This document shows positions 6,001 to 52,249 of a stretch of DNA of 64,000 nt, in pieces. The translations under genes were made by a program, and so were the position numbers. The notes under the pieces were generated by a model. That model ran no database searches. It was not told the origin of the DNA and saw only the letters and a program-made list of their open reading frames with translations. The DNA is taken from assembly GCF_964204645.1 (NCBI RefSeq), contig NC_134030.1:14074110-14138109 (forward strand), read 5' to 3'. This DNA comes from Tubulanus polymorphus. Its lineage: Eukaryota > Animalia > Nemertea. How positions within the stretch are numbered: position 1 is the stretch's first letter; each line of letters starts with the position of its first letter.

Positions 6001-9000
6001 AATGTCGACACGCAAAAGCGCTCCAATCGACGGGAAAATCACATTTCGACCCGTAAACGTCGTTCAGCGCTAGAAAAGACGTTTTCTTATCAAGTTTTCC
6101 CCGTATCGAAAAAATGAAAATGTCGATGCGCAAAAGCGCTCAAATCGACGGGAAAAGCACATTTCGAACCGAAAACGTCGTTCAGCGCGAGAAAAGACGT
6201 TTACTCATCGAGTTTTCCCCGTATCGAAAAAATGAAAATGCCGATACGCAAAAGCGCTCAAATCGACGGGAAAAGCACATTTCGATACATTTCGACCCGA
6301 AAACGTCGTTCAGCGCGAGAAAAGACGTTTTCTCATCAAGTTTTCCCCGTATCGAACAAATGAAAATGTCGATACGCAAAAGCGCTCAAATCGACTGGAA
6401 AAGCACATTTCGATACATTTCGACCCGAAAACGTCGTTCAGCGCGAGAAAAGACGTTTACTCATCGAGTTTTTTCCGTATCGAAAAAATGAAAATGCCGA
6501 TACGCAAAAGCGCTCAAATCGACGGGAAAAGCACATTTCGACCCGAAAACGTCGTTCAGCGCGAGAAAAGACGTTTTCTCATCAGATCTTCTCCGTATCG
6601 AAAAAATGAAAATGTCGACACGCAAAAGCGCTCCAATCGACGGGAAAATCACATTTCGACCCGTAAACGCCGTTCAGCGCTAGAAAAGACGTTTTCTCAT
6701 CAAGTTCTCCCCGTATCGAAAAAATGAAATTGTCGATGCGCAAAAGCGCTCAAATCGACGGAAAAAGCACATTTCGACCCGAAAACGTCGTTCAGCGCGA
6801 GAAAAGACGTTTTCTCATCAGATCTTCTCCGTATCGAAAAAATGAAAATGTCGACACGCAAAAGCGCTCCAATCGACGGGAAAAGCACATTTCGACCCGA
6901 AAACGTCGTTCAGCGCTAGAAAAGACGTTTTCTCATCAAGTTCTCCCCGTATCGAAAAAATGAAAATGCCGATACGCAAAAGCGCTAAAATCGACGGGAA
7001 AAGCACATTTCGACCCGTAAACCTCGTTCAGCGCTAGAAAAGACGTTTTCTTATCAAGTTTTCCCCGTATCGAAAAAAATGAAAATGTCGATGCGCAAAA
7101 GCGCTCACATCGACGGGAAAAGCACATTTCGACCCAGAAACGTCGTTCAGCGCGAGAAAAGACGTTTTCTCATGAAGTTTTCCCCGTATCGAAAAATGAA
7201 AATGTCGATACGCAAAAGCGCTCAAATCGACGGGAAAAGCACATTTCGATACATTTCGACCCGAAAACGTCGTTCAGCGCGAGAAAAGACGTTTTCTCAT
7301 CGAGTTTTCCCCGTATCGAAAAAATGAAAATGTCGATGCGCAAAAGCGCTCAAATCGAGGGGAGAAGCATATTTCGACACATTTCGACCCGAAAACGTCG
7401 TTCAGCGCGAGAAAAGACGTTTTCTCATCGAGTTTTCCACGTATCGAAAAAATGAAAATGTCGAAGCGCAAAAGCGCTCAAATCGACGGGAAAAGCACCT
7501 TTCGACACGTTTCGACCCGAAAACGTCGTTCAGCGCGAGAAAAGACGTTTTCTCATCAGATCTTCTCCGTATCGAAAAAATGAAAATGTCGACACGCAAA
7601 AGCGCTCCAATCGACGGGAAAATCACATTTCGACCCGTAAACGTCGTTCAGCGCTAGAAAAGACGTTTTCTTATCAAGTTTTCCCCGTATCGAAAAAATG
7701 AAAATGTCGATGCGCAAAAGCGCTCAAATCGACGGGAAAAGCACATTTCGAACCGAAAACGTCGTTCAGCGCGAGAAAAGACGTTTACTCATCGAGTTTT
7801 CCCCGTATCGAAAAAATGAAAATGCCGATACGCAAAAGCGCTCAAATCGACGGGAAAAGCACATTTCGATACATTTCGACCCGAAAACGTCGTTCAGCGC
7901 GAGAAAAGACGTTTTCTCATCAAGTTTTCCTCGTATCGAACAAATGAAAATGTCGATACGCAAAAGCGCTCAAATCGACTGGAAAAGCACATTTCGATAC
8001 ATTTCGACCCGAAAACGTCGTTCAGCGCGAGAAAAGACGTTTACTCATCGAGTTTTTTCCGTATCGAAAAAATGAAAATGCCGATACGCAAAAGCGCTCA
8101 AATCGACGGGAAAAGCACATTTCGACCCGAAAACGTCGTTCAGCGCGAGAAAAGACGTTTTCTCATCAGATCTTCTCCGTATCGAAAAAATGAAAATGTC
8201 GACACGCAAAAGCGCTCCAATCGACGGGAAAATCACATTTCGACCCGTAAACGCCGTTCAGCGCTAGAAAAGACGTTTTCTCATCAAGTTCTCCCCGTAT
8301 CGAAAAAATGAAATTGTCGATGCGCAAAAGCGCTCAAATCGACGGAAAAAGCACATTTCGACCCGAAAACGTCGTTCAGCGCGAGAAAAGACGTTTTCTC
8401 ATCAGATCTTCTCCGTATCGAAAAAATGAAAATGTCGACACGCAAAAGCGCTCCAATCGACGGGAAAAGCACATTTCGACCCGAAAACGTCGTTCAGCGC
8501 TAGAAAAGACGTTTTCTCATCAAGTTCTCCCCGTATCGAAAAAATGAAAATGCCGATACGCAAAAGCGCTAAAATCGACGGGAAAAGCACATTTCGACCC
8601 GTAAACCTCGTTCAGCGCTAGAAAAGACGTTTTCTTATCAAGTTTTCCCCGTATCGAAAAAATGAAAATGTCGATGCGCAAAAGCGCTCACATCGATGGG
8701 AAAAGCACATTTCGACCCAGAAACGTCGTTCAGCGCGAGAAAAGACGTTTTCTCATGAAGTTTTCCCCGTATCGAAAAATGAAAATGTCGATACGCAAAA
8801 GCGCTCAAATCGACGGGAAAAGCACATTTCGATACATTTCGACCCGAAAACGTCGTTCAGCGCGAGAAAAGACGTTTTCTCATCGAGTTTTCCCCGTATC
8901 GAAAAAATGAAAATGTCGATGCGCAAAAGCGCTCAAATCGAGGGGAGAAGCATATTTCGACCCAAAAACGTCGTTCAGCGCGAGAAAAGACGTTTTCTGA

Positions 9001-12000
9001 TCAAGTTTTCCACGTATCGAAAAAATGAAAATGTCGAAGGGCAAAAGCGCTCAAATCGACGGGAAAAGCACATTTCGACACATTTCGACCCAAAAACGTC
9101 GTTCAGCGCGAGAAAAGACGTTTTCTCATCGAGTTTTCCACGTATCGAAAAAATGAAAATGTTGAAGCGCAAAAGCGCTCAAATCGACGGGAAAAGCACC
9201 TTTCGACACATTTCGACCCGAAAACGTCGTTCAGCGCGAGAAAAGACGTTTTCTCATCAGATCTTCTCCGTATCGAAAAAATGAAAATGTCGACACGCAA
9301 AAGCGCTCAAATCGACGGGAAAATCACATTTCGACCCATAAACGTCGTTCAGCGCTAGAAAAGACGTTTTCTTATCAAGTTTTCCCCGTATCCAAAAAAT
9401 GAAAATGTCGATACGCAAAAGCCCTCAAATCGACGGGAAAAGCACATTTCGAACCGAAAACGTCGTTCAGCGCGAGAAAAGACGTTTACTCATCGAGATT
9501 TCCCCGTATCGAAAAAAATGAAAATGCCGATACGCAAAAGCGCTCAAATCGACGGGAAAAGCACATTTCGAACCGAAAACGTCGTTCAGAGCGAGAAAAG
9601 ACGTTTTCTCATCAAGTTTTCTCCGTATCGAAAAAATGAAATTGTCGATGCGCAAAAGCGCTCAAATCGACGGGAAAAGCACATTTCGACACGTTTCGAC
9701 CCAAAAACGTCGTTACGCGCGAGAAAAGACGTTTTCTCATCGAGTTTTCCACGTATCGAAAAAATGAAAATGTCGAAGCGCAAAAGCGCTCAATTCGACG
9801 GGAAAAGCACCTTTCGACACATTTCGACCCGAAAACGTCGTTCAGCGCGAGAAAAGACGTTTTCTCATCAGATCTTCTCCGTATCGAAAAAATGAAAATG
9901 TCGACACGCAAAAGCGCTCACATCGACGGAAAAAGCAGATTTCGACCCAGAAACGTCGTTCAGCGCGAGAAAAGACGTTTTGTCATCAAGTTTTCCCAGT
10001 ATCGAAAAAATGAAAATGTCGAAGCGCAAAAGCGCTCAAATCGACGGGAAAAGCACATTTTGAACCGAAAACGTCGTTCAGCGCGAGAAAAGACGTTTAC
10101 TCATCGAGTTTTCCCCGTATCGAAAAAATGAAAATGCCGATACGCAAAAGCGCTCAAATCGACGGGAAAAGCACATTTCGACCAAGAAACGTCGTTCAGC
10201 GCGAGAAAAGACAAGATTTCCCCGTATCGAAAAAATGAAATTGTCGATGCGCAAAAGCGCTCAAATCGACTGGAAAAGCACATTTCGACACATTTCGACC
10301 CAAAAACGTCGTTCAGCGCGAGAAAAGACGTTTTCTCATCGAGTTTTCCACGTATCGAAAAAATGAAAATGTCGAAGCGCAAAAGCGCTCAAATCGACGG
10401 GAAAAGCACCTTTCGACACATTTCGACCCGAAAACGCCGTTCAGTGCGAGAAAAGACGTTTTCTCATCGAGTTTTCCACGTATCGAAAAAATGAAAATGT
10501 CGAAGCGCAAAAGCGCTCAAATCGACGGGAAAAGCATATTTCGACCCAAAAACGTCGTTCAGCGCGAGAAAAGACGTTTTCTCATCAAGTTTTCCACGTA
10601 TCGAAAAAATGAAAATGTCGAAGCGCAAAAGCGCTCAAATCGACGGGAAAAGCACATTTCGACACATTTCGACCCAAAAACGTCGTTCAGCGCGAGAAAA
10701 GACGTTTTCTCATCGAGTTTTCCACGTATCGAAAAAATGAAAATGCCGATACGCAAAAGCGCTCAAATCGACGGGAAAAGCACATTTCGATACATTTCGA
10801 CCCGAAAACGTAGTTCAGCGCGAGAAAAGACGTTTCCTCATCAAGTTTTCCCCGTATCGAAAAAATGAAAATGTCGATACGCAAAAGCGCTCAAATCGAC
10901 GGGAAAAGCACATTTCGACCCGAAAACGTCGTTCAGCGCGAGAAAAGACGTTTTCTCATCAGATCTTCTCCGTATCGAAAAAATGAAAATGTCGATACGC
11001 AAAAGCGCTCAAATCGACGGGAAAAGCACATTTCGATACATTTCGACCCGAAAACGTCGTTCAGCGCGAGAAAAGACGTTTACTCATCGAGTTTTTTCCG
11101 TATCGAAAAAATGAAAATGCCGATACGCAAAAGCGCTCAAATCGACGGGAAAAGCACATTTCGACCCGAAAACGTCGTTCAGCGCGAGAAAAGACGTTTT
11201 CTCATCAGATCTTCTCCGTATCGAAAAAATGAAAATGTCGACACGCAAAAGCGCTCCAATCGACGGGAAAATCACATTTCGACCCGTAAACGCCGTTCAG
11301 CGCTAGAAAAGACGTTTTCTCATCAAGTTCTCCCCGTATCGAAAAAATGAAATTGTCGATGCGCAAAAGTGCTCAAATCGACGGAAAAAGCACATTTCGA
11401 CACATTTCGACCCAAAAACGTCGTTCAGCGCGAGAAAAGACGTTTTCTCATCAAGTTTTCCCCGTATCGAAAAAATGAAAATGCCGATGCGCAAAAGCGC
11501 TCAAATCGACGGAAAAAGCACATTTCGACCCGAAAACGTCGTTCAGCGCGAGAAAAGACGTTTTCTCATCAGATCTTCTCCGTATCGAAAAAATGAAAAT
11601 GTCGACACGCAAAAGCGCTCCAATCGACGGGAAAAGCACATTTCGACCCGTAAACGCCGTTCAGCGCTAGAAAAGACGTTTTCTCATCAAGTTCTCCCCG
11701 TATCGAAAAAATGAAATTGTCGATGCGCAAAAGCGCTCAAATCGACGGAAAAAGCACATTTCGACCCGAAAACGTCGTTCAGCGCGAAAAAAGACGTTTT
11801 CTCATCAAGTTTTCCCCGTATCGAAAAATGAAAATGTCGATACGCAAAAGCGCTCAAATCGACGGGAAAAGCACATTTCGATACATTTCGACCCGAAAAC
11901 GTCGTTCAGCGCTAGAAAAGACGTTTTCTCATCAAGTTCTCCCCGTATCGAAAAAATGAAATTGTCGATGCGCAAAAGCGCTCAAATCGACGGCAAAAGC

Positions 12001-15000
12001 ACATTTCGACCCGAAAACGTCGTTCAGCGCGAGAAAAGACGTTTTCTCATCAGATCTTCTCCGTATCGAAAAAATGAAAATGTCGACACGCAAAAGCGCT
12101 CCAATCGACGGGAAAAGCACATTTCGACCCGTAAACGCCGTTCAGCGCTAGAAAAGACGTTTTCTCATCAAGTTCTCCCCGTATCGAAAAAATGAAATTG
12201 GCGATGCGCAAAAGCGCTCAAATCGACGGAAAAAGCACATTTCGACCCGAAAACGTCGTTCAGCGCGAGAAAAGACGTTTTCTCATCGAGTTTTCCCCGT
12301 ATCGAAAAAATGAAAATGTCGATGCGCAAAAGTGCTCAAATCGAGGGGAGAAGCATATTTCGACCCAAAAACGTCGTTCAGCGCGAGAAAAGACGTTTTC
12401 TCATCAAGTTTTCCGCGTATCGAAAAAATGAAATTGTCGAAGCGCAAAAGCGCTCAAATCGACGGGAAAAGCACATTTCGACACGTTTCGACCCAAAAAC
12501 GTCGTTCAGCGCGAGAAAAGACGTTTTCTCATCGAGTTTTCCACGTATCGAAAAAATGAAAATGTCGAAGCGCAAAAGCGCTCAATTCGACGGGAAAAGC
12601 ACCTTTCGACACATTTCGACCCGAAAACGTCGTTCAGCGCGAGAAAAGACGTTTTCTCATCAGATCTTCTCCGTATCGAAAAAATGAAAATGTCGACACG
12701 CAAAAGCGCTCCAATCGACGGGAAAATCACATTTCGACCCGTAAACGTCGTTCAGCGCTAGAAAAGACGTTTTCTTATCAAGTTTTCCCCGTATCGAAAA
12801 AATGAAAATGTCGATGCGCAAAAGCGCTCAAATCGACGGGAAAAGCACATTTCGAACCGAAAACGTCGTTCAGCGCGAGAAAAGACGTTTACTCATCGAG
12901 TTTTCCCCGTATCGAAAAAATGAAAATGCCGATACGCAAAAGCGCTCAAATCGACGGGAAAAGCACATTTCGATACATTTCGACCCGAAAACGTCGTTCA
13001 GCGCGAGAATAGACGTTTTCTCATCAAGTTTTCCCCGTATCGAACAAATGAAAATGTCGATACGCAAAAGCGCTCAAATCGACGGGAAAAGCACATTTCG
13101 ATACATTTCGACCCGAAAACGTCGTTCAGCGCGAGAAAAGACGTTTACTCATCGAGTTTTTTCCGTATCGAAAAAATGAAAATGCCGATACGCAAAAGCG
13201 CTCAAATCGACGGGAAAAGCACATTTCGACCCGAAAACGTCGTTCAGCGCGAGAAAAGTCGTTTTCTCATCAGATCTTCTCCGTATCGAAAAAATGAAAA
13301 TGTCGACACGCAAAAGCGCTCCAATCGACGGGAAAATCACATTTCGACCCGTAAACGCCGTTCAGCGCTAGAAAAGACGTTTTCTCATCAAGTTCTCCCC
13401 GTATCGAAAAAATGAAATTGTCGATGCGCAAAAGCGCTCAAATCGACGGAAAAAGCACATTTCGACCCGAAAACGTCGTTCAGCGCGAGAAAAGACGTTT
13501 TCTCATCAGATCTTCTCCGTATCGAAAAAATGAAAATGTCGACACGCAAAAGCGCTCCAATCGACGGGAAAAGCACATTTCGACCCGAAAACGTCGTTCA
13601 GCGCTAGAAAAGACGTTTTCTCATCAGATCTTCTCCGTATCGAAAAAATGAAATTGTCGATGCGCAAAAGCGCTCAAATCGACGGAAAAAGCACATTTCG
13701 ACACATTTCGACCCAAAAACGTCGTTCAGCGCGAGAAAAGACGTTTTCTCATCAAGTTTTCCCCGTATCGAAAAAATGAAAATGCCGATACGCAAAAGCG
13801 CTCAAATCGACGGGAAAAGCACATTTCGACCCGTAAACGTCGTTCAGCGCTAGAAAAGACGTTTTCTTATCAAGTTTACCCCGTATCGAAAAAATGAAAA
13901 TGTCGATGCGCAAAAGCGCTCACATCGACGGAAAAAGCAGATTTCGACCCAGAAACGTCGTTCAGCGCGAGAAAAGACGTTTTGTCATCAAGTTTTCCCA
14001 GTATCGAAAAAATGAAAATGTCGAAGCGCAAAAGCGCTCAAAATCGACGGGAAAAGCACATTTTGAACCGAAAACGTTGTTCAGCGCGAGAAAAGACGTT
14101 TACTCATCGAGTTTTCCCCGTATCGAAAAAAATGAAAATGCCGATACGCAAAAGCGCTCAAATCGACGGGAAAAGCACATTTCGATACATTTCGACCCGA
14201 AAACGTCGTTCAGCGCGAGAATAGACGTTTTCTCATCAAGTTTTCCCCGTATCGAACAAATGAAAATGTCGATATGCAAAAGCGCTCAAATCGACGGGAA
14301 AAGCACATTTCGATACATTTCGACCCGAAAACGTCGTTCAGCGCGAGAAAAGACGTTTTCTCATCAGATCTTCTCCGTATCGAAAAAATGAAAATGTCGA
14401 CACGCAAAAGCGCTCCAATCGACGGGAAAATCACATTTCGACCCGTAAACGCCGTTCAGCGCTAGAAAAGACGTTTTCTCATCAAGTTTTCCCAGTATCG
14501 AAAAAATGAAAATGCCGATACGCAAAAGCGCTCAAATCGACGGGAAAAGCACATTTCGATACATTTCGACCCGAAAACGTCGTTCAGCGCGAGAAAAGAC
14601 GTTTTCTCATCGAGTTTTCCCCGTATCGAAAAAATGAAAATGTCGATGCGCAAAAGCGCTCAAATCGAGGGGAGAAGCATATTTCGACCCAAAAACGTCG
14701 TTCAGGGCGAGAAAAGACGTTTTCTCATCAAGTTTTCCACGTATCGAAAAAATGAAAATGTCGAAGCGCAAAAGCGCTCAAATCGACGGGAAAAGCACAT
14801 TTCGACACAATTCGACCCAAAAACGTCGTTCAGCGCGAGAAAAGACGTTTTCTCATCGAGTTTTCCACGTATCGAAAAAATGAAAATGTCGAATCGCAAA
14901 AGCGCTCAAATCGACGGGAAAAGCACCTTTCGACACATTTCGACCCGAAAACGTCGTTCAGCGTGAGAAAAGACGTTTACTCATCGAGTTTTCCCCGTAT

Positions 15001-15701
15001 CGAAAAAATGAAAATGCCGATACGCAAAAGCGCTCAAATCGACGGAAAAAGCACATTTCGACCCGAAAACGTCGTTCAGCGCGAGAAAAGACGTTTTCTC
15101 ATCAGATCTTCTCCGTATCGAAAAAATGAAAATGTCGACACGCAAAAGCGCTCCAATCGACTGGAAAATCACATTTCGACCCGTAAACGCCGTTTAGCGC
15201 TAGAAAAGACGTTTTCTCATCAAGTTCTCCCCGTATCGAAAAAATGAAATTGTCGATGCGCAAAAGCGCTCAAATCGACGGAAAAAGCACATTTCGACCC
15301 GAAAACGTCGTTCAGCGCGAAAAAAGACGTTTTCTCATCAAGTTTTCCCCGTATCGAAAAATGAAAATGTCGATACGCAAAAGCACTCAAATCGACGGGA
15401 AAAGCACATTTCGATACATTTCGACCCGAAAACGTCGTTCAGCGCGAGAAAAGACGTTTTCTCATTGAGTTTTCCCCGTATCGAAAAAATGAAAATGTCG
15501 ATGCGCAAAAGCGCTCAAATCGAGGGGAGAAGCATATTTCGACCCAAAAACGTCGTTCAGCGCGAGAAAAGACGTTTTCTCATCAAGTTTGCCACGTATC
15601 GAAAAAATGAAAATTTCGAAGCGCAAAAGCGCTCAAATCGACGGGAAAAGCACATTTCGACACATTTCGACCCAAAAACGTCGTTCAGCGCGAGAAAAGA
15701 C
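1..15701. repeat. Tandem satellite DNA array, 118-bp monomer with a 128-bp variant (10-bp ACATTTCGAY duplication); roughly 130 monomers; runs off the left edge of the window
   Basis: The unit CGTCGTTCAGCGCGAGAAAAGACGTTTTCTCATC...CGTATCGAAAAAATGAAAATGTCGA...CAAAAGCGCTCAAATCGACGGGAAAAGCACATTTCGACCCGAAAA repeats continuously and stops abruptly at ...GAGAAAAGAC (15701). Confidence 0.99.
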
Positions 15702-16310
15702 AATAATTCCTGGTAAAGCTGCAGCAGATTTTTTAGATAGTTCCCATAAATATTTTGCTAATTTCTTTAAACCATCTTTAATTTTATCTTGTATAGAATC
15801 ATTCGGGGGTTTATCCGGTTTATTGGGAGTAGGAGTAGATTTCAAAGAATTTGATATTGCTAAACCAATTGTTGTAAATAACATAGTTACAGCTGTTAGA
15901 ATTGAAAGAATTGTTATTCCTTCTAATTTAAATAATAACTTTATTCTATCTTTCAATGATATTTCAGAATTTGGTTTAATCAACAAATCTTTAAAAATAA
16001 CTTTTGAAAATGCTAAAGGTCCAACGTCTTCATCATTTATGTTAAGTTTGGAATTTTCAATTATACGTTCTAATTTAGGTATTTTGTTTAAATTATCTAA
16101 ATCTTTTTTTACTAAATCTGGGTCTAAATTTTCAGGATTTAATTGTGATTCTGCATTTTTAATATAATCAGGCATATTTAAATTATTATTATATTCTGGC
16201 TCATTACCGTCATTAAAACTTGTTTCACTAAAATCAGGCGGTTGTTCTTCAGTTATGCCAGGTTCATCTAAAGGATCCATTCCAATTTCTTCTCCACCTT
16301 CTACATCCAT
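15702..16310 (-). pseudogene. Viral predicted membrane protein, C-terminus truncated by the satellite
   Basis: Acidic N-terminus, hydrophobic segment EGITILSILTAVTMLFTTIGLAI, Pro-rich linker, amphipathic helix ending ALPGII at the junction. The rest of the ORF-track translation (to 15633) is satellite read-through. Confidence 0.7.
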
Positions 16311-16329
16311 TTATATAATAAAAAAATTA
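16308..16329 (-). promoter_or_regulatory. Shared viral promoter-like cassette TAA-T7-ATTATA-TAAATG
   Basis: Read on the minus strand; one of 8 copies. Confidence 0.75.
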
Positions 16330-17648
16330 AAATTTAAAATATAATATTCCTCCTATAACAATTCCTATACAAGTTAAAGCTAATTTAGTATTAAAATGGA
16401 ATTTATTATCATTATCAGTTTTAATTATATCATGTTGAATATTATCAGTTTTAATATTTTCTGATGAATTATGATCCGGTTTAGAATCACTATTTAATTT
16501 AATATTCTTAGTTTAGTTTCTGTTGATTGAATATGTTTTTTATTTTTTTCACCTTCCATTAATTTTGGAGCAGTAATAATCTTTTTATTTATATCATTTA
16601 ATCCAAATGAATTATTTATTGTTGCAGTTTTAATTAGATTATTGTAACCAATGATGTTTCCCATCTTTAATACTAAATCATTAGAAATAATTAATAGATT
16701 AGGGCCTATACAATAATTTAATCTAATATGTGATTTATCTAAATAATTTTGATATCTTACAATGTTTTCTGGAATCGATCTATTTTTATCATCATGAATA
16801 GAATCTTCAAATAATACTTTGAATTGTTTCTGTGCATCGAATGAAGTGTTATCATTTCCAATTATTGGGGATCTTGTTTCAACTTGTGCACCTAGAATAC
16901 ATATCAAATAAGTTCTAATTGATTGATTTATTCTTTGTATTCCAGCTTTAGTAAAACCTTCACCATTTTCTAAAATGAAATTAACCCAACCATTATGGTT
17001 TTGTTGTTGTATATTATTATAACATTTTGGTAATTCATTCCAATTTAGTGTTCTTATATCTGAATTTGTCATTATTTTTCCAAATTCTTTAGTATATAAT
17101 ATTCCGAATCCACCCATTGTTCCAATTTTTGCTCTAAAATCTTTATTTGAATTAATATTAAATTCATTACATATTTTATAAAACTTAGAAAAATTAATAT
17201 TATTATTTAGTTCTTTAAAATATTTTGAACCTGGTAAAGGACATTCTAATTCATCTAATATTAATTTTATTTGAAAATATGTATGAAATCTAAAAAGTGA
17301 TAACATCAATGGTAAACTTGGTTTGTTTAAATGATCATTCCAACTAATTCCGCATCCTGTTCTTGCGCAATAAACAGCAAAATTTAATTGGTTCTGCCAA
17401 TACTTCATATTAGATTTTAATAACCATTGTTTTGCCTCATTTAAATTTTTGAAATTAATTGTATACACATGAAATATATTTTCCATCTTTACATGAAAAT
17501 TATTACTTTCAGTAACATAAATATATAAATCAATTAATGAATTTAAAACTTCATTTCTATATGTAATATCTTTATTAAAATCTATTGCTGGAATATTATA
17601 TTTAATTGATTTATTATATTGGAAAGCTTTTGGAAAACTATCTACCAT
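16327..17648 (-). pseudogene. Viral ~440-aa protein with C-terminal membrane anchor (frameshift near 16510)
   Basis: 384-aa ORF (WQNQLNFAVYCARTGCG motif) continues in another frame as ...KFHFNTKLALTCIGIVIGGILYFKF*, with its stop at 16327-16329 inside the shared intergenic motif. Confidence 0.7.
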
Positions 17649-17667
17649 TTATATAACAAAAAAATTA
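17646..17667 (-). promoter_or_regulatory. Shared viral promoter-like cassette TAA-T7-GTTATA-TAAATG
   Basis: Read on the minus strand; one of 8 copies. Confidence 0.75.
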
Positions 17668-18099
17668 ATAATTTATTAATTCTTTTAATAATTTATCTTG
17701 TTCTTCAACTGTTATATGACCATTTAAACTTATTAGTGTATCTAATGTATTCTTTAATTTATTAATTTCTTTTATATTAGTTTTAATTTTTTCTTTATTA
17801 CTTTTTATATTCAATTTTGAACTTATACCAGTTAAAACACTTGAACTTAATCCTAATACACCAATTGATATAGCTAAAGGTGTTAATGGTGAGAATATTG
17901 CAAGAAATGTTATTACAGAACTAATTGTAACTGAACCACTAATAATAAGATAATATATAATTTTACTTTTTAAATATTTTTTCTTTTTAACTTTTAAATC
18001 ATTTTCAAATTCTAATATTTGTTTTTCTAAATATATTTTTAATTTAGTTTTATTTATATCATGAGGAATAATATCAATACTATCAACTTTATCTTCCAT
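17665..18099 (-). CDS. Viral 144-aa protein: coiled coil, two hydrophobic helices, coiled coil
   Basis: Intact ORF with hydrophobic stretches IIYYLIISGSVTISSVITFLAIF and LAISIGVLGLSSSVLTGI; flanked by the shared motif. Confidence 0.75.
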   Translation of the reverse strand: MEDKVDSIDIIPHDINKTKLKIYLEKQILEFENDLKVKKKKYLKSKIIYYLIISGSVTISSVITFLAIFSPLTPLAISIGVLGLSSSVLTGISSKLNIKSNKEKIKTNIKEINKLKNTLDTLISLNGHITVEEQDKLLKELINY

Positions 18100-18118
18100 T
18101 TTTTTAGAAAAAAAATTA
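18097..18118 (-). promoter_or_regulatory. Shared viral promoter-like cassette, variant TAA-T8-CTAAAAAAATG
   Basis: Same 22-nt spacing, with AAAATG in place of TAAATG. Confidence 0.6.
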
Positions 18119-18540
18119 CTAATTAGTAAAGTTATATGCTACAAATATAACAATAAATGTTCCGCCTAAAATCCAAATTATTTCATATTTCTGCTGTTCC
18201 TTACTTGGGGTATAATAATCTGATATTGTAGGTTTATGTAGATGTAATTTTTCTTTATTGGTTACCGCGTTATATAAACTCATTGCATCATCGACTGATT
18301 GAAAATCTCTATGTGAAATCTTCTGATCATATAATTCCTTGTTATGTAATCCATATAGTTTTGTCTCTTTTCTCTATATTCTTCCGCTGCTTTATTGTAT
18401 TTCTCTAAAGCTATGTTATGTCTTTTTTGTTCTTCTAATGAACTATTTTTATCTATATGCCTAAATAAATAACTACCGCCAGTAAATGCTAAAGCGTTAG
18501 CAATTGCCGATCCTATAATAGTTATAACTGCAGAAGCCAT
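18119..18540 (-). pseudogene. Viral protein with N-terminal hydrophobic helix, coiled coil and C-terminal hydrophobic tail (frameshifted)
   Basis: MASAVITIIGSAIANALAFTGGSYLF...EEQKRHNIALEK; downstream frames give SDYYTPSKEQQKYE and WILGGTFIVIFVAYNFTN*. Confidence 0.65.
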
Positions 18541-18559
18541 TTATTTAGCAAAAAAATTA
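18538..18559 (-). promoter_or_regulatory. Shared viral promoter-like cassette TAA-T7-GCTAAA-TAAATG
   Basis: The TAA here is not the upstream stop codon, which is at 18565. Confidence 0.75.
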
Positions 18560-18564
18560 TGCAT

Positions 18565-18786
18565 TTATATGGGAGGAATATATTTTTGTTTTTCCAAATA
18601 ATCAATAGTTAAATTAGATAAAGTAACTGCTAATGTTAATTTTAAAATATAATTTATATCAAATCTATCAACATTAACACTTCCCATTTTAAATACTTTT
18701 TTTAATACCATTGAATAACCACCAGTTCCAACTGATAGTAATGCTCCATTATATATTCCAGTTATTATCCACTTATTATCACTCAT
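18565..18786 (-). CDS. Viral small hydrophobic protein (73 aa)
   Basis: Intact ORF preceded by the shared motif; two moderately hydrophobic segments. Confidence 0.65.
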   Translation of the reverse strand: MSDNKWIITGIYNGALLSVGTGGYSMVLKKVFKMGSVNVDRFDINYILKLTLAVTLSNLTIDYLEKQKYIPPI

Positions 18787-18805
18787 TTATTTATCAAAAA
18801 AATTA
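18784..18805 (-). promoter_or_regulatory. Shared viral promoter-like cassette TAA-T7-GATAAA-TAAATG
   Basis: Embedded in the last codons of the upstream ORF. Confidence 0.75.
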
Positions 18806-19128
18806 CTATCATCAAAATATTTAGTTATCTTAGTGATGATTAATTCAACATTTATTTCATTACTACTTTTATGATTATCATATATTTTGGATAATATGTT
18901 TTTAATATCATCGATAATTCCACCTTTATTTAATTCATAATATTCTAAAGACGTTTTGATTAAATCAATTACTTTTTCTATATTATAATTTTCTTTATTA
19001 ATCATTGATGCATTGTTAAATGATTTACTTTTTATATCAGTAATTACATCATTTAGTTTAATTCTCATTTCTTTACCATGTTTAAAATCAAACTCAAAAC
19101 ATATACTCGGTCCAACAGTTATATTCAT
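18787..19128 (-). CDS. Viral hypothetical protein (113 aa)
   Basis: Intact ORF with TAAATG start inside the shared motif; abuts the next gene. Confidence 0.6.
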   Translation of the reverse strand: MNITVGPSICFEFDFKHGKEMRIKLNDVITDIKSKSFNNASMINKENYNIEKVIDLIKTSLEYYELNKGGIIDDIKNILSKIYDNHKSSNEINVELIITKITKYFDDSNFFDK

Positions 19129-19148
19129 TTATATAGTGAAAAAAATTA
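19126..19148 (-). promoter_or_regulatory. Shared viral promoter-like cassette TAA-T7-CACTATA-TAAATG
   Basis: Read on the minus strand; one of 8 copies. Confidence 0.75.
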
Positions 19149-19904
19149 CTCTCTACATCTTATAACTAATTCATAAATTACAGGGAAATTATTTAAATCA
19201 ATTAAGTATCCATTATGATTTCTAATTTCTAACCTAAAATTATTAAAACGAGGAATGCATGGTTTGAAATCACATTCTGTTAAATTATAATTTATTTGCG
19301 TTCCAAATTCTTTAACATTCTTCAATGGTAAAATGTTTAATAAACCAGAATTACAAGTTATATCTTTAGTTGCTTCGAATGTTTTTGTAGGATTGATTAA
19401 ATTGCAATAAATATAAAAATGCGTGTAAGGTATTAAGTTTGGTGTAGCATCAACATTTGAATAAAGTTTATCTGGTGTAATTCCTAATAGTTTAGCAATA
19501 GGTTTTTTAACTAAAAATTGATATTTTTCTTGATTAGTTAACCTTATCTTAATTTTATCAGAACTATCACTTTTTAAAAATCTAATACTAAACCCGGAAT
19601 TAGTACCTAATTTGTGCCAGGCTTTTCTATTAATTTCTTGAGATAATGTATCTAAATTATATAACCCTGGTTTTAGAAATAGAGGATACCATTTATTTTT
19701 ATTTTTGTTAATAACTGCAAAACCACTATGATCAATAGTTTTATCCGTTATATTATAAAAAGAATTACATAAACTCAAATTAACTAATTTTAAATCAACA
19801 CAATTCTTAAATTATCTATCTAATTGTACTTGTAAATTATGTGATTTATAATTTGTAAGTCTTCTTGAATCAACAAATATTCTGTATTCTTTTAATTCTA
19901 CCAT
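19146..19904 (-). pseudogene. Penton-like minor capsid protein (single jelly-roll), one in-frame TAA at 19812-19814
   Basis: The likely start is ATG 19904: MVELKEYRIFVDSRR...QLDR*FKNCVDLKLVNLSLCNSFYNIT...HFYIYCNLI...GLLNILPL...LEIRNHNGYLIDLNNFPVIYELVI. This pattern fits Polinton/NCLDV minor capsid proteins. Confidence 0.75.
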
Positions 19905-19926
19905 TATTTATAACATAAAAAAATTA
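19902..19926 (-). promoter_or_regulatory. Shared viral promoter-like cassette TAA-T7-ATGTTA-TAAAT-AATG (penton gene)
   Basis: There is no upstream co-oriented gene, so the motif is not merely a stop or terminator. Confidence 0.7.
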
Positions 19927-19972
19927 CCGCTCATCACTAAAAATTAATTTTAATAAAATTGTTCCTTAATAA

Positions 19973-21285
19973 ATGGATGAGAAGATAGCATGTGAAATTT
20001 GTGGTGAACTTCTAAGAAAAAGTAATATGGCTCGACATATGAAAAAACATGATGAAAATTATAAACCCCCTAAACAAAACTGTCCAAAATGTAATAAATT
20101 ATTCTCAAGAAATTATGTTAAAAAACATTCAGAGAAGTGTAAAATTAATGGTGCAACGGCTAATGTTGATAGTAATGAAAGTAATAGTAATTCTGTTGAA
20201 GTTGAACCTGAAATTATTTGGAAAAGACCTTTCTTATTCTATGATAAGGATGATATAAAAGATCATTTCTGCGAGCCTTGTCGAATAAAATATAGCCCTG
20301 AAAATATAGAAGATTGGGAGAATCATCAATTTCGTAAAGCACATATAGATAAAATTTCTAATAAATTTGAAACTGAATTCAATGAAAGAAAAAATAATTT
20401 ATTAGAAAAAATAAAATATGAGAAAACGTTACCAGATAATTAAGAAACAGTTGAAAAGTTAGAAAAACAATATAATGAATTAACAAGAAAAACATATTAT
20501 TGTAAATATTGTAAATTGATTATTACAACAAGTAATTCAAATCTACATAATAGAACAATAAAACATAAAGAAAACGTAAGAAAAAACCAAGAGCTTAATG
20601 AAAATCTATTACCAAGAAATTATAAACAAAAATGCCCACAATGTAATTACGCGACCTTAAGACAAGAAGGTACTGTGTTATTTTGTGTTGATTGTGGATG
20701 GCAAAAGAATTTATGGGGTGAAGAAAAAACTAGAAATTTTCTCAAAATTAATCCAAAATTAAATTATCTAGATGAAATTTTTAAAATATTTTCTATAGAA
20801 GATCATACACCAGAATATATGCAATGGCTTGAAAAAATGAAAATAATAGAAAATAAAAATGGTGAAATAACTAAAAAAGATATTATAAAAACAATTATTC
20901 CGTCAACATTTAACACAAAACAAAAGAAAATGTATTTATATTTATTATTTAACGATTATTATGAAAAACCTAAATTAACAGAAGAAGATATGGAAAATAT
21001 AAAAAAAATATTTAAACAAATATTAATGTATCATTTGGAAAATAGAATAACAGATTCATTAAATTATGAATTCTTTTTAATTTAAACATCGATATTATAA
21101 TTCCATTTGATGAATTAACGAACAAAAAGAAACAAAGAGAGCGAGATGAAATGTGGAATAATATAACACGTAATTTAAATGAGAAAAATGAAATGGAAGA
21201 ACCTAAACAAATTATACAAGAACAATTAAATGAAAAAGAAGAAACCAATAGTGATTTCGAGTTTGATGATATTGATACATTTTAA
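19973..21285 (+). pseudogene. Viral multi-zinc-finger protein broken by two frameshifts (near 20440 and 21080)
   Basis: CEIC..RHMKKH, CPKC..KKHSEKC, CEPC..HQFRKAH, YYCKYC..HNRTIKH, CPQC..FCVDCGW; acidic tail ...DFEFDDIDTF*; TAAATG start. Confidence 0.7.
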
Positions 21286-24200
21286 TAACCATAAGGTAAT
21301 GTTTTTATACCATCATCTGAAATATGTCTTTTATCATCAAATGGATTTAAACTAGTTTTTTCAACTTCATTAATGTACATCTCGTGATCTTCTGATCTTA
21401 AACAATTCATTTTATTTTTCATTACAATTGAGTTATATAAACACTTTATATAATCTTGAAATTCTATATGTTTATCAACATTCTTCAAATTCTTCATTAT
21501 ATTTTATAGCAAAATCTTTAGGATTATTCACATGTATTCTATAACATTGCGATGATTTCATAACATCTATGATTTTGAATGTTTTATGTGAATAAACTTC
21601 TTCACAGAATTTCTTTATTCTTTCTAATAATTTCAAATCTTGATTGCATAAATACCAGCAATATTGAGTGCGATTAACATAATTATACACACCTGCTGAA
21701 CCATCTCCCATGAAAAATCCTTTGATAAAATATTCTTTTTCTTCTAATGTTTCGGGTTCTATATTATAAATATTATCAATAATTTCATCAAATGACATAT
21801 GATTCATTCTTTGGAAAAATCTTTTATGTAATAATTCATCTCCAATTTTTATATCAGTTGGTTTTATTTCATCACCATTTCGTTTAATTAAATTATGATC
21901 TTCTGTAACATCTACAAACCCTAATTTAGTTCTAACTCTATAGATTTTCTTATTTGTTTTATGCCTAATAATATTCTTTAATTTTTTCCATCCATTTCTT
22001 GTTCAAACATCCATTAATCCATTTATTTGTATTAATTCTTTTTCACCATATGAAATATAACATTCATTTTGTTTTGGAATTATTTCTGAAATTCTTCTTA
22101 TCAATATTTTATCATTACATTTTAATAATATTGGGGTGTCAGCTGTTACAGAATCAAAATATAATATTTCAATATGCTTTTCCCCAAAAAGTGGTTGTAA
22201 AACATTATAATAAAAATCATACATTAATAATTTTGATACTTCTAAAACAGTTGAACCAATGAATATAGGTTTATTAAATTTCATTGACGTTCTTTTTAAT
22301 TTTCCCGCGGTTAAATAATCTTCAAATCTTTTATTTCCTAAATGTCTAGGACTTGATTGTAAATGTCTTAATCTTTCAGAATTATTTACTAATTCAATAT
22401 CATTTCTATTTCTAATATTTTCACATGTTTTTCCATAAAAACTATTGTTCATTAATTTGAAGAAATCTTTTTCAAAATCTGTTTTTGATATGGTTCTCTG
22501 TTGAGTATTGAAATCTATATATTTTTCTAACCACTTCGATTGATTAAATTCAATATATCTATGTACTTTCTTTAATTTCATTCCTTGTTTTACATAAAAT
22601 TTTACCATTCTATAATGAACGATATAAGTGTATTTATTATTTTGACTAAGTATTAATTTTTCTGTAAAAACATGATCTTTCGGTTTTATTTTCTTCTGGT
22701 ATTCACTTAAATAACTATCATCTACAGTTAAATGTTCTGGGCAATAAGGAAAGTTTCTTGTTTTAAACTTTATATTTTCAGGATATTCTAAATCAACTAC
22801 AAAGAAATAACCAATTGGTGCTTCATCTTCTAAACTCATAATTGCGCTTTCCCAATTAGTTTTATCATCATTTTCAACTTCTGTTAATATAAAATTTTTA
22901 TATGGTTGAGGTTGCATCATTGCCCAACCATATAAACTTTTGGCGTCAATATATAATAATTTATATTCATCATTTGCTTTAAAATACCTCCCATAACACC
23001 ACTAATTCCACCTCTAATTTATTTTTCAAATAATAAAACCATATCTGGTTCTTTTAATAAATCTAATTCTACATTTGTATATTTTAAACCACATTGCCAG
23101 GTTAAACCAGGACTAGAGTAGCAATAACAAGGATCAACATTAAAATGATTCAAATTAACTTCTCTAAATTTTTCAAATATGTCAGCCAATTTCATAACAT
23201 CTGATTTTTAAATATAATTCAACTAATTCACCATGATTTTTCATCTTAAAATGGTTCCAAATATTTAATGTTCTATTAAACACTTCGTCTTTCACATACT
23301 CCTCTTTTAATTGATCATAAAATTGATCTTTTAATAATTCTGTTACATTAAAATCATTGTGTGTTTTATAAAATGAATAAGGAATTGCGCCTTTATATCT
23401 CAATAATTTAGAATCTTGGTCATTTGGATAATAATATCGAGTTATAACGAAATCATTATCAACTAAACTTTTTGATAAATTATCTAATGAACTTGCTAGA
23501 AATCTATAAGAGTCTAAAAATCTAATGCAACCAAATTGAAATGAAATATAATTTTCAGATGTTTAAGCTAATAGTTTAAAATCATATTTTCTTACATTTA
23601 CACCATTCATAGCATTATATTCTTCTATTTCTTGATTAATTGAACCCAATTTTCCTGATAATTGTTTTATAAATAGATGGGTATCATAGCCTGATAAATT
23701 ATGAAATAAAATTGGTACGAAATTAACTTTCTTAGCTTGTAAATTGCAATCTTCATGAGCAGCTCCACGATATTTTGAATTTAAATGATTATGATCTCTA
23801 ACTTTTTTATCAAATGAATAAAAATGTTTTTCACAATAACAACAATGAGTTGCATAATTAAAATCAATTTCATCTTCTTTTGTCATAACTATTCTTTTAT
23901 TTTTGTTTAATAATTTTGCAAAATCACTTTCTAATTCAATCATTTTGTTACAAAAATCATCAACTACATCTTCACCTCTAAAAGAAATATATTGACTTTC
24001 ATATAATTCAGGATAATTTGATTTCATATAAATTCCATAAGCTGCAGCTCTTTGATGAACTTTTTTAATTGTATTTATAATTGGTGGATCCTGTGTTGTG
24101 TCTTCATTTAATTCATTTCCTTTATCCATTGATTTTAATAATTGCTTTTTGTTATATATTTCTTTTCTATCTTGATCAGTTAATTCTTTATTCAACGATT

Positions 24201-25700
24201 CAAAATCCCCATAAATTACAAATGGAACAATATTCTTAAATTTATGATTAGTAAATTTCAATTTATAATCTTTTTCTGTTGGCATTATTAATTTACAAAA
24301 ATCTTTATTATCACATAATTCTTTATGTTTTAGTAATGTATTCTCAGTCATAAATTTAGATAAACATTTTCTACATAGATAAATTTTACGATGATGATCA
24401 CTTTCTGTTCTAAAGAATAAATCAATTTGTTTTAACCACATATAATGTTCATTTTCATCTTTTTTGTAATATAACAAATCTATAGCATTTTCATCATCAT
24501 AATATTCTGTTAAATATAAAGCTTTCAATGTATAATCTTTAATATTTTCACCTTTTGTCTTTGGTAATTGCATTAATTCGAATACATTTATTTTTAAATT
24601 ATTAACTTTTTCTATTTTAAAAATCATTTTTATAGTTACTGGATATTGATCAATTTTATATAATGTTTCATATTTCCGGTAATTTGTTATTCTAAAACTA
24701 TGTGTAATATCTTCTGTTGGATGTAAGCAACTAATAATTGCCCACAGAAAACATTTATAATCTTCATTTTGAACATTTATTACTGCTTTTGTTGTAAATG
24801 GTAATTTAATATAAGATGATCCTTTAATATCCTCCTTTTCTGTTGTAAAGTTTGAATCATTTTAAAACATTTTATTACTTTTTGATGTTTTATTTCTTTT
24901 TGTATTATAAACATTTAAATCTAAAAATATAATTTCATTTAATGATAAACCAGAACCCTCAAAATATCTTTCTTCAATATGACGTTTAAATTCATTAAAT
25001 ATTTTTTCTAACTTCTCTTTTATTTGCGTTTTTGAAATTATTTCTTCAGAGAGTGTTTGAATATTATAATCCATTTTCTCTTCTGACTTTAAAAAACTTA
25101 CTTTCCCAGAGATACTAATTTTTGGATATTCAACATCTGTTATCAAATCTAGTATTTTTCTCTTATTTCATTAAATTTACTATAATCTTCTATTGTTGTA
25201 CCTTTAAAAAATCTAAATGTAATAGCTGCAGGACCAATTTTATTACGTAATGTTTCTAATATTTCAATTGTATCTTTTATTTCTAGTGAATCAATATAAT
25301 TTCTAACATTTTCCATGTAAGGTTTATTTGAAATGGATTTAGTTTTTGAAGTTGGTTTTTTTACTTGTTGAGGTTTATCATCAAAATAATATTTTCCTAA
25401 AACATTATTACTCAAATTTTGATGGTGTTTTTGTGATTCGAGATGTCTATTATAATTCCTTTTTGTTATAAATTCATTACAAACTTCACATTTTATTTCA
25501 TCCACATTCATATTTTCTAATCGTTCTTTTCTTTCATTGGAATTTTCTGAAGTTTCAAAATCTATAACATTTTTTATATGATTTGCTGTTTTTTCATGTC
25601 GTGATTTTTGGGATTTATCAATGTATTTTTTACAATATTGGCAATAATATTGATTTTTATTAACATTATTGTTTTCTGGCTGGTGTTCATTCTCCCCCAT
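21282..25700 (-). pseudogene. polB: Protein-primed family B DNA polymerase (pPolB), intein-interrupted, with many lesions and an internal deletion
   Basis: In order: two Zn fingers; GSSYIKLP...VINVQNEDYKCFLWAI (OTU-like); ExoI VIYGDFES; endonuclease VII CCYC..VRDHNH..YRGAAHEDCN; ExoII HNLSGYD; FLDSYRFL; ExoIII YLK/SDV; IRGG; motif A YIDAKSLYGWAM; motif B KLMNNSFYGKT; motif C YFD|; C-terminal KTSLNPFDDKR..TLPYGY. In-frame stops at 24862, 23563, ~23020 and 22003; frameshifts near 25148, 23207 and 22990. Confidence 0.95.
21490..22152 (-). mobile_element. Intein (HINT N-region plus first LAGLIDADG motif) at the Pol-c site of pPolB; C-terminal half deleted
   Basis: Starts SVTADTPILLK immediately after YFD; V*TRNGWKKLKNIIRHKTNKKIYRV; block B VDVTEDHNL; LAGLIDADG helix FIKGFFMGDGS. 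It stays in frame across the TGA at 22003. Confidence 0.92.
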
Positions 25701-25719
25701 TTATTAGGAAAAAAAATTA
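25698..25719 (-). promoter_or_regulatory. Shared viral promoter-like cassette TAA-T8-CCTAA-TAAATG (polB)
   Basis: Precedes the polB ATG at 25700; no upstream ORF. Confidence 0.75.
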
Positions 25720-25723
25720 CTTG

Positions 25724-25886: not shown

Positions 25887-26480
25887 AGCGACGGAGATCA
25901 CTGGTGGAGACAACCACTGCCAGTGCTGGGTGAAATGGTATTGTTGTCGATTGACGACCGTTCCTTTGAGCAGGGTAGATTTTGATGGTGCTGTAACGGA
26001 GACATACTGCCTTGTATGTCGATATCTTCGAGGTCACACGCAGTACAGGTTCTCGCAGAAGCGTGACCTCATAGTTTTGGTCGAGTTTCTTTCTTCTATT
26101 GATGTAAAAATCGACTTTTAAGAGGTCCATAGAACGTAAATCGAGACACTCTGGAGGCGGCCATGTTACATTGCTCACGTGATGAAATACTGAAATCTGA
26201 TTGGATCCGTATATTCCGCGGAAGATGGCGGACGGTTTAAACCTGTCCTATTTAAACTGGTCGCCTGTCCAATTCTGCGCCACCTGCATTCGCAGTCAGA
26301 ATAGGACAGGAGCGACAACCTGTACTACGTGTGGCCTCGATGATATCGACATACAAGGCAGTATGTCTCCGTTACAGCACCATCAAAATCTATCCTGCTC
26401 AAAGGAACGGTCGTCAATCGACAACAATACCGTTCACCCAGCACTGGCAGTGGTTGTCTCCACCAGTGATCTCCGTCGCT
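25887..26480. repeat. Inverted repeat, ~170-bp arms (25887-26056 and 26312-26480) with ~255-bp spacer
   Basis: AGCGACGGAGATCACTGGTGG...GATATC...CAGGTTCTCGC is reverse-complementary, with few mismatches, to GCGACAACCTG...GATCTCCGTCGCT. Confidence 0.9.
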
Positions 26481-28108
26481 CTACGATCCTAGTGTAACCA
26501 TCTGTGGCACGACACTAAGATTCTCAGTGAACAATACCGACGAACTTGAGATAATTTCTACTCACTGACTTACTGAACTGAACCAGCCATGCAGCAGAGG
26601 CCACGACACCGGCAATTTGTTTGTTCACTTAAGATGACTGATTGATTATGCTGAATGTGACACTAGATATTAGCAGTCAATTCAGTGTGGTGAAAATATT
26701 AGCTTATACGACGGGTAACTTCACTTACTTCACTTCAATGTCTTTTAAAACTTGTGAACAGTAAATGAATACTTATTTACAAATATTCTGTTGATTGTCT
26801 ATTGTAGGTCATTGTGTGTGTTCTGATGTTGATTTTCTGAGATACAACTCAGGTTTTCTTAAGAATTAGAAGTTATACGTATTAAATTGAATGAGCTCAA
26901 CATACACATGAATTGTTGTTGTATCATGGTAATTTTGAAAAACGGATGAAACACGAATTGAAAAGTCAATCCAGGTTTAATTGTTAGTGTATGCATATCA
27001 GTTTAATTTCAGAAATTAACCTCAATCACGAATCAAAGAGATTAACGAATCCAGCACTAATCATCATGAAATTAGATTCCAAACAACAATTGTGGTGAAA
27101 ATCCTAGATTCTGATACAGTAATGAGTTTTAAAGAGCTGGAATTTATTAATCCCACGAGCGAGCATGCAATACGAATTGAGATTGGATTTAGGCCTACTT
27201 TCTGGTCAAGACTTGGTCTTTGTGATTCGAGTTAAGTTAGAGATATCAGTGTCATTCTGTTGTCACACAATTTGCCATGTCACAAAATACATATGTCACC
27301 GTCTTGTCAGGCAGTCTGTATATTGAATAAGATTTTGTACTAGAAAGTGGACAATAAATATAGAATTGCCAGTAAAAAAGAGTTTTTGTGATGGATTTTA
27401 CTCAATTTCTAGCAAAAATCATGTATGGTCCATGGGGAGAGGAAAATATTGCAAGTTAATCTGATCACTGGTCTATCCCAACTTGCTGTCTGTATCATCA
27501 GGAATATATGTAGAGATGCCGCGTTGGATCCAAATATCTGATATAAAAAAACTGACAAGGAGTTCAACTGTTGTAAACTTTATTCAGACTTTAGTCATTT
27601 TCACATCATCAGAAACACAACAATTGAGTGAATATATTTTACATATCAGCCAAGTTCCCTCAGAATGACTATCACAGCTGATCCCTTTTTCTTACCTACA
27701 AAATTAATAAGTATCAATATCAGCGGATTAATTCGATACTCACAGCAATTAATGCCTTTTCTTCGGTCTTTAAATTTACGTTTGTTTGCCGATTACATTT
27801 ATGATTCATAGATTATCAGTTGATTTACTGTAATCAATCATTCCAGTGCGATTTTGATATTACTCTTAGTTTCGCTTATTCGATGAGACGCCATTTTAAC
27901 CCGGAAGTAACTCGATACTGACATGTTTGACATGCATCGAAAATGTAAAATGGATGATGGGATCAACCCGGTCTCTAACTGAAGGTTCACCAAGAGTCTT
28001 AGTGTCTGATGTACCAGGATCGTAGAGCGACGGAGATCACTGGTGGAGACAACCACTGCCAGTGCTGGGTGAAACTGAAGGTAGAGACCGGCAACCAGTC
28101 TATGTCCT

Positions 28109-51583: not shown

Positions 51584-52249
51584 AAGCTTTGATACACAAG
51601 GTAATAACGATAGTTCGAAAATTCTCGATTATCGTCGAGCAAAAACAATTTAAATTCTTTTAATAAGATTATATTAAGGTAATCTTGTATTAAGATTATT
51701 AAGACCAATTGACAAAAAATTGAATTCTAAGATTTGAACGATTTAGATCGTTAAGACATGAACTGCGAATTTCGTTCAATATTCTAATTTGATCGTCTCT
51801 CAGCATCTTAATATGACTAATTTTAAGTTCTTTACATTGCCTTTCTTCTTGCTGCTGAGCAAATGTAAATGGACCAACATTGCCATATATGTTAAGTGGG
51901 CCAAGGAAAAGCAGTTGCCTCGAAACTTTTTCGACGTCATCTCGTTTAGGCCATGCAAATTCAGTTGCGGATATCTTGTGCCGATACTTGATCTCGGCCT
52001 CGTCTTCGTCGTATATTGATTAGAATTATATGTGACCAGATAATACAAAAAACGTAAAGTTTTTACGCAATCAATTAAATCAAAAATGAAAAAAATTGCG
52101 GAAAATATCGTTTACATTTAGCTGTGGCATGTTAATTGGTGTTTGCTCTTCAATCGCTATTTCATGAAAAACATGAACATCAAGCTCCGTCGCTATATCA
52201 GGCTGAGTGGCCATTTCAGTCTCCGTTACCCACGGGTGAAGGTTACAAC

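Follow-up and report, generated by a model that had tools for sequence, protein, structure and literature searches.

A truncated Pol-c intein in the protein-primed DNA polymerase of a Polinton-like remnant and its family of intact relatives

A decayed protein-primed polymerase in an AT-rich element

We analysed a window of 64,000 nucleotides from the nemertean Tubulanus polymorphus (NC_134030.1, positions 14,074,110 to 14,138,109; coordinates below count from the window's first letter), in which the minus strand from approximately 25700 to 21282 carries a decayed protein-primed family B DNA polymerase (pPolB) whose reading frame is split by the remains of an intein. The features of the locus are as follows.

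15702..25720, no strand assigned: Polinton/adintovirus-like remnant, AT-rich (20-25% GC against 31-45% in its flanks; ends approximate)
22153..25700, minus strand: N-extein of the pPolB pseudogene (61.5% identity to the intein-free pPolB P0253 over 1027 columns)
21488..22152, minus strand: N-terminal part of a Pol-c LAGLIDADG intein (~221 codons, the N-terminal ~62%)
22152, minus strand: block A Ser1
22005-22003, minus strand: in-frame stop inside the intein
T 21906 and H 21895, minus strand: block B TxxH, reading VTEDH
21720-21700, minus strand: first LAGLIDADG helix, GFFMGDG
21480..21487, minus strand: 8-nt filler at a deletion joint, an exact repeat of 21496-21489
21282..21479, minus strand: final ~65 codons of the pPolB C-extein (tblastn to residues 1625-1689 of the intein-bearing pPolB P0002 and 1244-1313 of P0253)
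19146..19811, minus strand: 221-aa open reading frame (ORF), candidate minor capsid (penton) protein (ESM Atlas first cluster 0.98; no Pfam match)

The N-extein comprises zinc fingers, an HNH/endonuclease VII-like insert, an exonuclease domain, motifs A and B and the first Asp of motif C, and it is damaged by stops at 24864 and 23565 and by frame changes near 25155 and around 23184-23004. PF03175 is found on its relatives P0002, P0121, P0369, P0379 and P0009 and matches the window pPolB weakly. In an extein tree of 96 rows, and by the domain matches of its relatives, the window extein clusters with pPolBs, and its closest counterpart in the protein collection is the intein-free P0253 (72% identity over 270 columns). 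We read the element as a remnant and its polymerase as a pPolB of the Polinton/adintovirus kind.

Besides the polymerase, the element contains zinc-finger ORFs, the candidate penton and several small ORFs. Preplasmiviricota is the commonest taxon in the ESM Atlas cluster of the 221-aa ORF, among the 6 members with a phylum, and this ORF may encode a minor capsid protein, which we offer as a lead only. No Pfam assignment to an integrase, packaging ATPase, protease or capsid was obtained among the 17 ORFs of the truncated remnant, and the window yielded neither a pair of terminal inverted repeats bounding the element nor a target-site duplication. An open ORF of 384 aa (16494-17648, minus strand) had no match in Pfam, the ESM Atlas or IMG/VR. 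Three small hydrophobic ORFs of 157, 86 and 73 aa (17665-18786, minus strand) gave only weak SLATT/VTT Pfam matches, and to us they presumably resemble the membrane-active accessory genes of adintoviruses.

Positions 1-15701 are taken up by a satellite array (118-bp unit, 246-bp higher period; at least 15.7 kb) that adjoins the left end of the truncated element. Nested inverted repeats beside its right end (25887-26493 and 28013-28073; 123 nt at 95% and 61 nt at 98%) are probably a MITE-like host repeat. Also present in the window are a LINE reverse transcriptase fragment (50666-51628, minus strand; PF00078, E 1e-30), a candidate DNA-transposase remnant without Pfam match (49117-49747, plus strand) and, in the element's flanks, TA microsatellites.

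The insert is the N-terminal part of a Pol-c intein

On the minus strand, motif C reads EILYFD up to 22153 and continues in frame as SVTADTP from 22152, which places the insertion between the D and T of motif C, the Pol-c site. The sequence-only reading that preceded this work had described motif C running into block A, a TxxH motif, a LAGLIDADG helix and a stop, all of which were recovered at the same coordinates, and had called the insert an intein, an identification that is now independently supported. TIGR01445 (intein_Nterm) scores 28.2 bits on the insert, above its cut-off of 24.5; PF14890 matches at E=1.7e-5, short of its curated cut-off; the closest PDB sequence is the intein endonuclease PI-PkoII (E=3e-4); and the top protein match is an intact intein-bearing pPolB (E=2e-65, 66% identity). 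Identity to the intact intein of P0002 is 62-66%. Hedgehog and Vint proteins are absent from the protein matches to the insert, the Vint family appearing among the intein families of 1 PolB in 120 rows of a further protein search, and we rejected a Hedgehog/Vint Hint domain because the insert is internal to a PolB and carries a LAGLIDADG domain. Since the extein groups with pPolBs, the other identity that would have undone the earlier reading, an RNA-primed extein, failed as well, and its placement of a Pol-c insertion in a protein-primed polymerase holds.

A point absent from that reading is that the insert has been truncated by a deletion, which fuses the intein (21488) to the C-extein (21479). 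The missing stretch corresponds to residues 1404-1624 of P0002, that is, 134 residues of the intein and 87 of the extein, TDS among them, so that the second LAGLIDADG motif, block F Asp, terminal (His)-Asn and +1 residue are all gone and the first LAGLIDADG motif alone is retained. Filler copied from adjoining sequence, as at this joint, is a typical scar of end-joining repair. Because of the in-frame stop and the loss of both the C-terminal part of the intein and TDS, the window copy is inert: judged from its sequence it is a dead fossil, predicted to be incapable of splicing, cutting or replication.

Four sequencing runs contain about half of the sequence words sampled, and RNA data sets are absent from this listing. 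Raw reads (1934 million letters, with 3886 reads falling on 21150-22750) from a separate sample labelled as the same species indicate that other copies differ. Depth over the intein part is 146-262 and the entire insert is covered; because such depth at a single-copy locus would imply a genome as small as ~8-13 Mb, the element is multi-copy. At the intein's first base precisely, 129 reads diverge from the window (24 loose ends listed, 188 others), as they would if drawn from empty alleles. Reads likewise diverge at both sides of the deletion (129 at 21488 and 176 at 21479, among the 24 loose ends listed), as longer copies would produce. Of 202 reads over the stop codon, 190 disagree with the window sequence, and the stop is therefore not common to most copies. 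No read or contig in this sample spans one complete intact intein; an intact copy likely exists in the window's host.

A family of intact inteins in protein-primed polymerases

The main finding of this work is a family of pPolB inteins, of which the window copy is a fossil member. A protein search with the insert returned 119 proteins, 10 of them of pPolB type, 6 type II topoisomerases and the rest from RNA-primed PolB families, and further searches and cluster look-ups yielded 12 cluster representatives with a complete pPolB intein of 333-354 aa. Intein-bearing and intein-free relatives, both of which the sequence-only reading had proposed to look for, are thus available, the former as these representatives and the latter as the empty alleles described below.

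Each of the 12 intact inteins retains Ser1, the TxxH motif, the aspartates of both LAGLIDADG motifs, block F Asp and terminal Asn, and Thr+1 and the block D Lys are each retained in 11 of 12; the penultimate residue is His in nine, Lys in two and Ser in one. TIGR01445 scores lie above cut-off for P0121 and P0004 and slightly below for P0002 and P0009, with no match for P0123. In the AlphaFold model of P0004 the insert has a pLDDT of 81-98 (blocks of ten) and the exteins are poorly modelled; the top Foldseek matches of this model are TliVMA, PhoVMA, PI-PkoII, PI-PfuI, PI-SceI and I-DmoI. Between lineages the endonuclease domain is 45-51% identical, as against 37-49% for the N-extein, and is thus conserved like extein and Hint. 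No mini-intein occurs among the 12 representatives; short forms are frequent in viral (186-280 aa) and archaeal (150-173 aa) relatives.

The residues ahead of the insertion Asp differ among carriers (YFD, YGD, YMD, YSD, ASD, SSD and YLD). The carrier P0009 comes from another, distantly related class of pPolB, with exteins 20-30% identical to those of the other carriers and intein parts 40-61% identical; we take this class to be marked by a VSR-like motif. Intact carriers come from JGI, ENA, NCBI and Logan records, all with the same junction. The sole carrier with a name, P0408, is annotated as a hypothetical protein on a 2.5-kb contig of a Thiodiazotropha symbiont MAG from a lucinid clam, and we infer that this contig is probably DNA of a host element that ended up in the bacterial bin.

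IMG/VR scans with P0004, P0002, the 384-aa ORF and P0253 gave no relative. The 80 IMG/VR loci listed (45 of 64 parts aligned) comprise 74 RNA-primed PolBs, 6 unassigned loci and no pPolB, and therefore no free virus with an intein-bearing pPolB was seen among them; a metagenome scan gave one locus (L081) from 479 candidates. The inteins of the six type II topoisomerases (P0052, P0054, P0080, P0086, P0093 and P0115) are related to the Pol-c family (E 4e-15 to 3e-7), possibly reflecting non-allelic spread among viral genes. Giant-virus-type PolB inteins also lie on contigs binned as Heimdallarchaeia, Promethearchaeota, Patescibacteria and Bacteroidales (P0191, P0454 and L082-L089), which would reflect wrongly binned viral sequence or genuine transfer.

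Filled and empty alleles differ around the insertion site

Coexisting filled and empty alleles were found in three families. In a 136-member cluster, 7 of the 15 members listed are filled and 6 empty, with a length difference of exactly 346 residues between copies that are 94-98% identical, and in a 121-member cluster 3 of the 15 listed are filled and 1 is empty, with a difference of exactly 339 residues; over both clusters, presence/absence pairs are 94-99% identical. These exact differences mean that the insert is in frame and that its removal leaves an uninterrupted host protein. Copies of the 136-member cluster sit on contigs measuring between 57 kb and 1 Mb, which is expected of integrated copies.

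We compared the flanks of filled and empty alleles in the P0121 family (7 versus 6 kin alleles; 15 of 136 members covered), where all 10 fixed differences lie between positions -7 and +44 and none in 850 other positions, with the proviso that the copies are kin and non-independent, which inflates p-values. Among these kin alleles, 5 of 14 target-site residues vary among the empties and none among the filled, as against 68 of 891 elsewhere. The empty alleles form three haplotypes, with motif C reading YFD-TDA, YTD-CDS and YGD-TDA. Empties with an unusual motif C (CDS or TDA) include P0365, P0367, P0368, P0369, P0371 and P0372, which are 94-98% identical copies; this group of variants provides candidates for nuclease-resistant targets. 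Co-conversion and escape from cutting would be expected to leave such a flank and target-site pattern. The filled-allele flank is also present in one empty relative, P0310, and the flank pattern may also stem from suppressed recombination beside a large insert.

Trees place the family beside giant-virus-type inteins

The pPolB inteins form a single clade in each of four trees with support of 100 (100/100), contributing 13 of 181, 11 of 61, 14 of 55 and 11 of 57 rows. The 61-, 55- and 57-row trees hold 50, 41 and 34 viral rows hand-picked from 168, and the 181-row tree is restricted to inteins of 320 to 435 aa and to complete viral inteins; omitted from the trees were the pPolB fragments P0005, P0013, P0025 and P0420, near-copies and 12 archaeal inteins. 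When the 57-row tree is rooted on 12 archaeal Pol-c inteins, the pPolB clade falls within viral-type PolB inteins (98/94), its sister being a group with ChoanoV1, with Mimivirus elsewhere in the tree. The 61-row tree nests the clade at 98/91, and a quick tree of 55 rows agrees with the others. The stem below the clade measures 0.42 changes per site, and an AU test does not reject a position of the pPolB inteins outside all viral PolB inteins (p=0.335).

The close likeness to the Mimivirus PolB intein suggested by the sequence-only reading therefore survives as raw identity, which is 44% to Mimivirus (209 columns) and 37-42% to ChoanoV1 and three others, but not as phylogenetic neighbourhood, which belongs to the group holding ChoanoV1. 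All 8 pPolB inteins long enough to include the C-terminal motif have a version one residue shorter, as do 34 of 168 PolB inteins, which are exactly the clade's tree neighbours; the outgroup leaves the polarity of this motif unfixed. Giant-virus MAG names are attached to 14 of the 15 IMG/VR loci listed with this short motif. The proposal that the intein homed from a giant-virus polymerase stands for a giant-virus-type origin; the direction, from giant virus to Polinton, is favoured by the nesting. Its corollary that the two genomes shared a compartment applies at best to an old event: the pPolB inteins have diverged down to 41-50% identity among themselves, and the transfer is thus uninformative on whether this host shared a cell with a giant virus.

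In the extein tree, whose sampling is biased to the query's relatives, the intein is present in 19 of 96 rows, in two sub-clades interleaved with empties and explained by 7 changes, and within the main pPolB class the order of carriers largely mirrors the intein tree. The P0009 intein lies inside the pPolB clade at 97-99/96 (AU for its exclusion p=0.09, not rejected); given the distance of its extein, a lateral move would be needed for this intein wherever P0009 falls in the tree.

Homing, vertical descent and other explanations

By standard intein chemistry (see PMC7765530), inteins excise themselves and rejoin their exteins, and their endonucleases cut empty alleles that are then repaired from filled ones. 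By analogy, splicing, cutting and target escape can be inferred for the pPolB family. The insert of ~340 residues would splice out after translation, restoring D-TDS and hence a working polymerase, and its endonuclease would cleave empty pPolB alleles at motif C, with repair off a filled copy converting the cut alleles and carrying along some flank. Tens of element copies per nucleus, or co-infected cells, would offer a steady supply of empty targets, and because such targets keep coming the endonuclease would be preserved; the empties that survive would tend toward altered target codons, and the same cutting could have permitted one further jump, into the second pPolB class. The conservation of the endonuclease, the coexistence of filled and empty alleles and the confinement of their differences around the site all fit ongoing homing. 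We therefore consider it probable, on comparative sequence evidence, that the window insert is a broken member of a Pol-c intein family acquired once from a giant-virus PolB and kept by homing among Polinton copies. A stronger version, in which animal nuclear genomes host a working giant-virus-derived intein that homes among Polintons, has twice jumped between classes via a six-residue motif and drives escape at active-site codons, is a tentative one that we would sooner doubt than assert.

Much of this pattern could also arise if the intein had been gained once and inherited vertically because splicing is essential, with sporadic loss by recombination with empties and the endonuclease acting as a folding aid. 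That the intein tree largely agrees with the extein tree in the main class is as compatible with prolonged vertical inheritance and loss as with homing, the 7 changes on the extein tree are readable as losses, and in the window intein and extein show no shift in composition (GC 24.3 versus 24.4%, GC3 13.6 versus 14.6%). We nevertheless regard purely vertical descent as unlikely, since both catalytic aspartates persist in all 12 representatives across ~45% identity with no mini-intein, whereas viral and archaeal relatives frequently drop the endonuclease domain, since the occurrence in the distant P0009 requires a lateral move, and since the empties vary at the target site.

A separate question is whether the donor was a giant virus at all. 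The pPolB inteins could be an old sister of all viral Pol-c inteins, could derive from some large DNA virus that is not a member of Nucleocytoviricota, or could have been the donor to one giant-virus group, and the AU result, the long stem and the fact that only two viral rows (Mimivirus and ChoanoV1) bear virus names, the exteins of the others being unplaced, speak for such scenarios. Set against them are the nesting of the clade in the best trees, the giant-virus MAG names among loci with the shared C-terminal motif, and the restriction of the pPolB intein to two sub-clades when the Pol-c allele is widespread in giant viruses and archaea, and we judge these scenarios decidedly unlikely. That the whole observation is an artefact, either an assembly chimera of giant-virus and Polinton DNA or a misread Hedgehog/Vint-type Hint domain, might be suspected from a broken, truncated copy with Pfam scores under curated cut-offs. 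It is highly improbable given an in-frame junction at a conserved site that recurs in 12 independent intact proteins, coverage of the entire insert by reads of a separate sample, and a LAGLIDADG domain without Hedgehog matches; the independent intact proteins led us to reject the chimera outright. Our preferred reading thus remains acquisition from a giant-virus PolB followed by homing.

Significance and comparison with known systems

The pPolB is apparently a host in which this familiar type of element has not been described before, in keeping with the sequence-only reading, to which inteins were not known as a feature of Polinton/adintovirus pPolBs. In the main texts of the openly available papers searched, we found no Hint-bearing intein in a Polinton pPolB. 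The main text of Jeong 2023 (PMC10748475), whose topic is HNH and VSR domains, uses 'intein', 'LAGLIDADG' and 'Hint' 0 times, and the adintovirus paper is likewise without these words. Krupovic 2024 (PMC11161782) has one sentence proposing 'intein invasions' behind the homing endonuclease inserts of Polinton pPolBs, citing Jeong 2023. A survey of 257 eukaryotic and 136 viral inteins (PMC5784728) records them from fungi, from algae, from a small number of protists and from four giant-virus families, with no entry for animals or Polintons.

The Pol-c allele is known from archaea and Mimivirus, and Ogata et al. considered direct homing between distant PolB genes implausible (both PMC549080). If our reading is correct, the allele crossed into pPolB, which shares little beyond motif C, and then between pPolB classes, and natural filled and empty alleles now make the question of distant homing testable. 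The pPolB inteins would then record, at the molecular level, that DNA of giant viruses and of Polintons came into contact. They would also provide a naturally occurring multi-copy setting in which to study homing and target escape within a eukaryotic nucleus, and a source of new inteins and meganucleases likely functional in animal cells.

The closest known counterparts are the Pol-c inteins of giant viruses (Mimivirus, Ogata 2005, PMC549080; ChoanoV1, QDY51635.1), which occupy the same YxD/TDS site, measure 330-360 aa and share Ser1, TEDH, two LAGLIDADG motifs and xN-T ends at 37-44% identity; they sit in RNA-primed PolBs, whereas the PolB interrupted here is protein-primed and belongs to a small element that integrates. 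Archaeal Pol-c inteins (Thermococcales and others, including PI-PkoII) have the same insertion site and architecture but are far more distant from the pPolB inteins, and served as outgroup. The HNH and VSR inserts of Polinton pPolBs (Jeong 2023, PMC10748475) are likewise endonuclease domains within a pPolB, and the window pPolB itself has an endonuclease VII-like insert; those inserts are described without a Hint domain, in contrast to the complete splicing domain that here splits an active-site motif and is present or absent among alleles. Finally, Gallot-Lavallee 2023 (PMC10710043) describes inteins in viral PolB genes that lie on nuclear scaffolds of Klebsormidium, Tetrabaena and Hondaea. 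These too reside in an endogenous viral polymerase in a eukaryotic nucleus, but they are described as viral-like polymerases in algae and a protist, whereas the element with the inteins described here is of Polinton type and multi-copy, and its filled and empty copies share one host, probably an animal.
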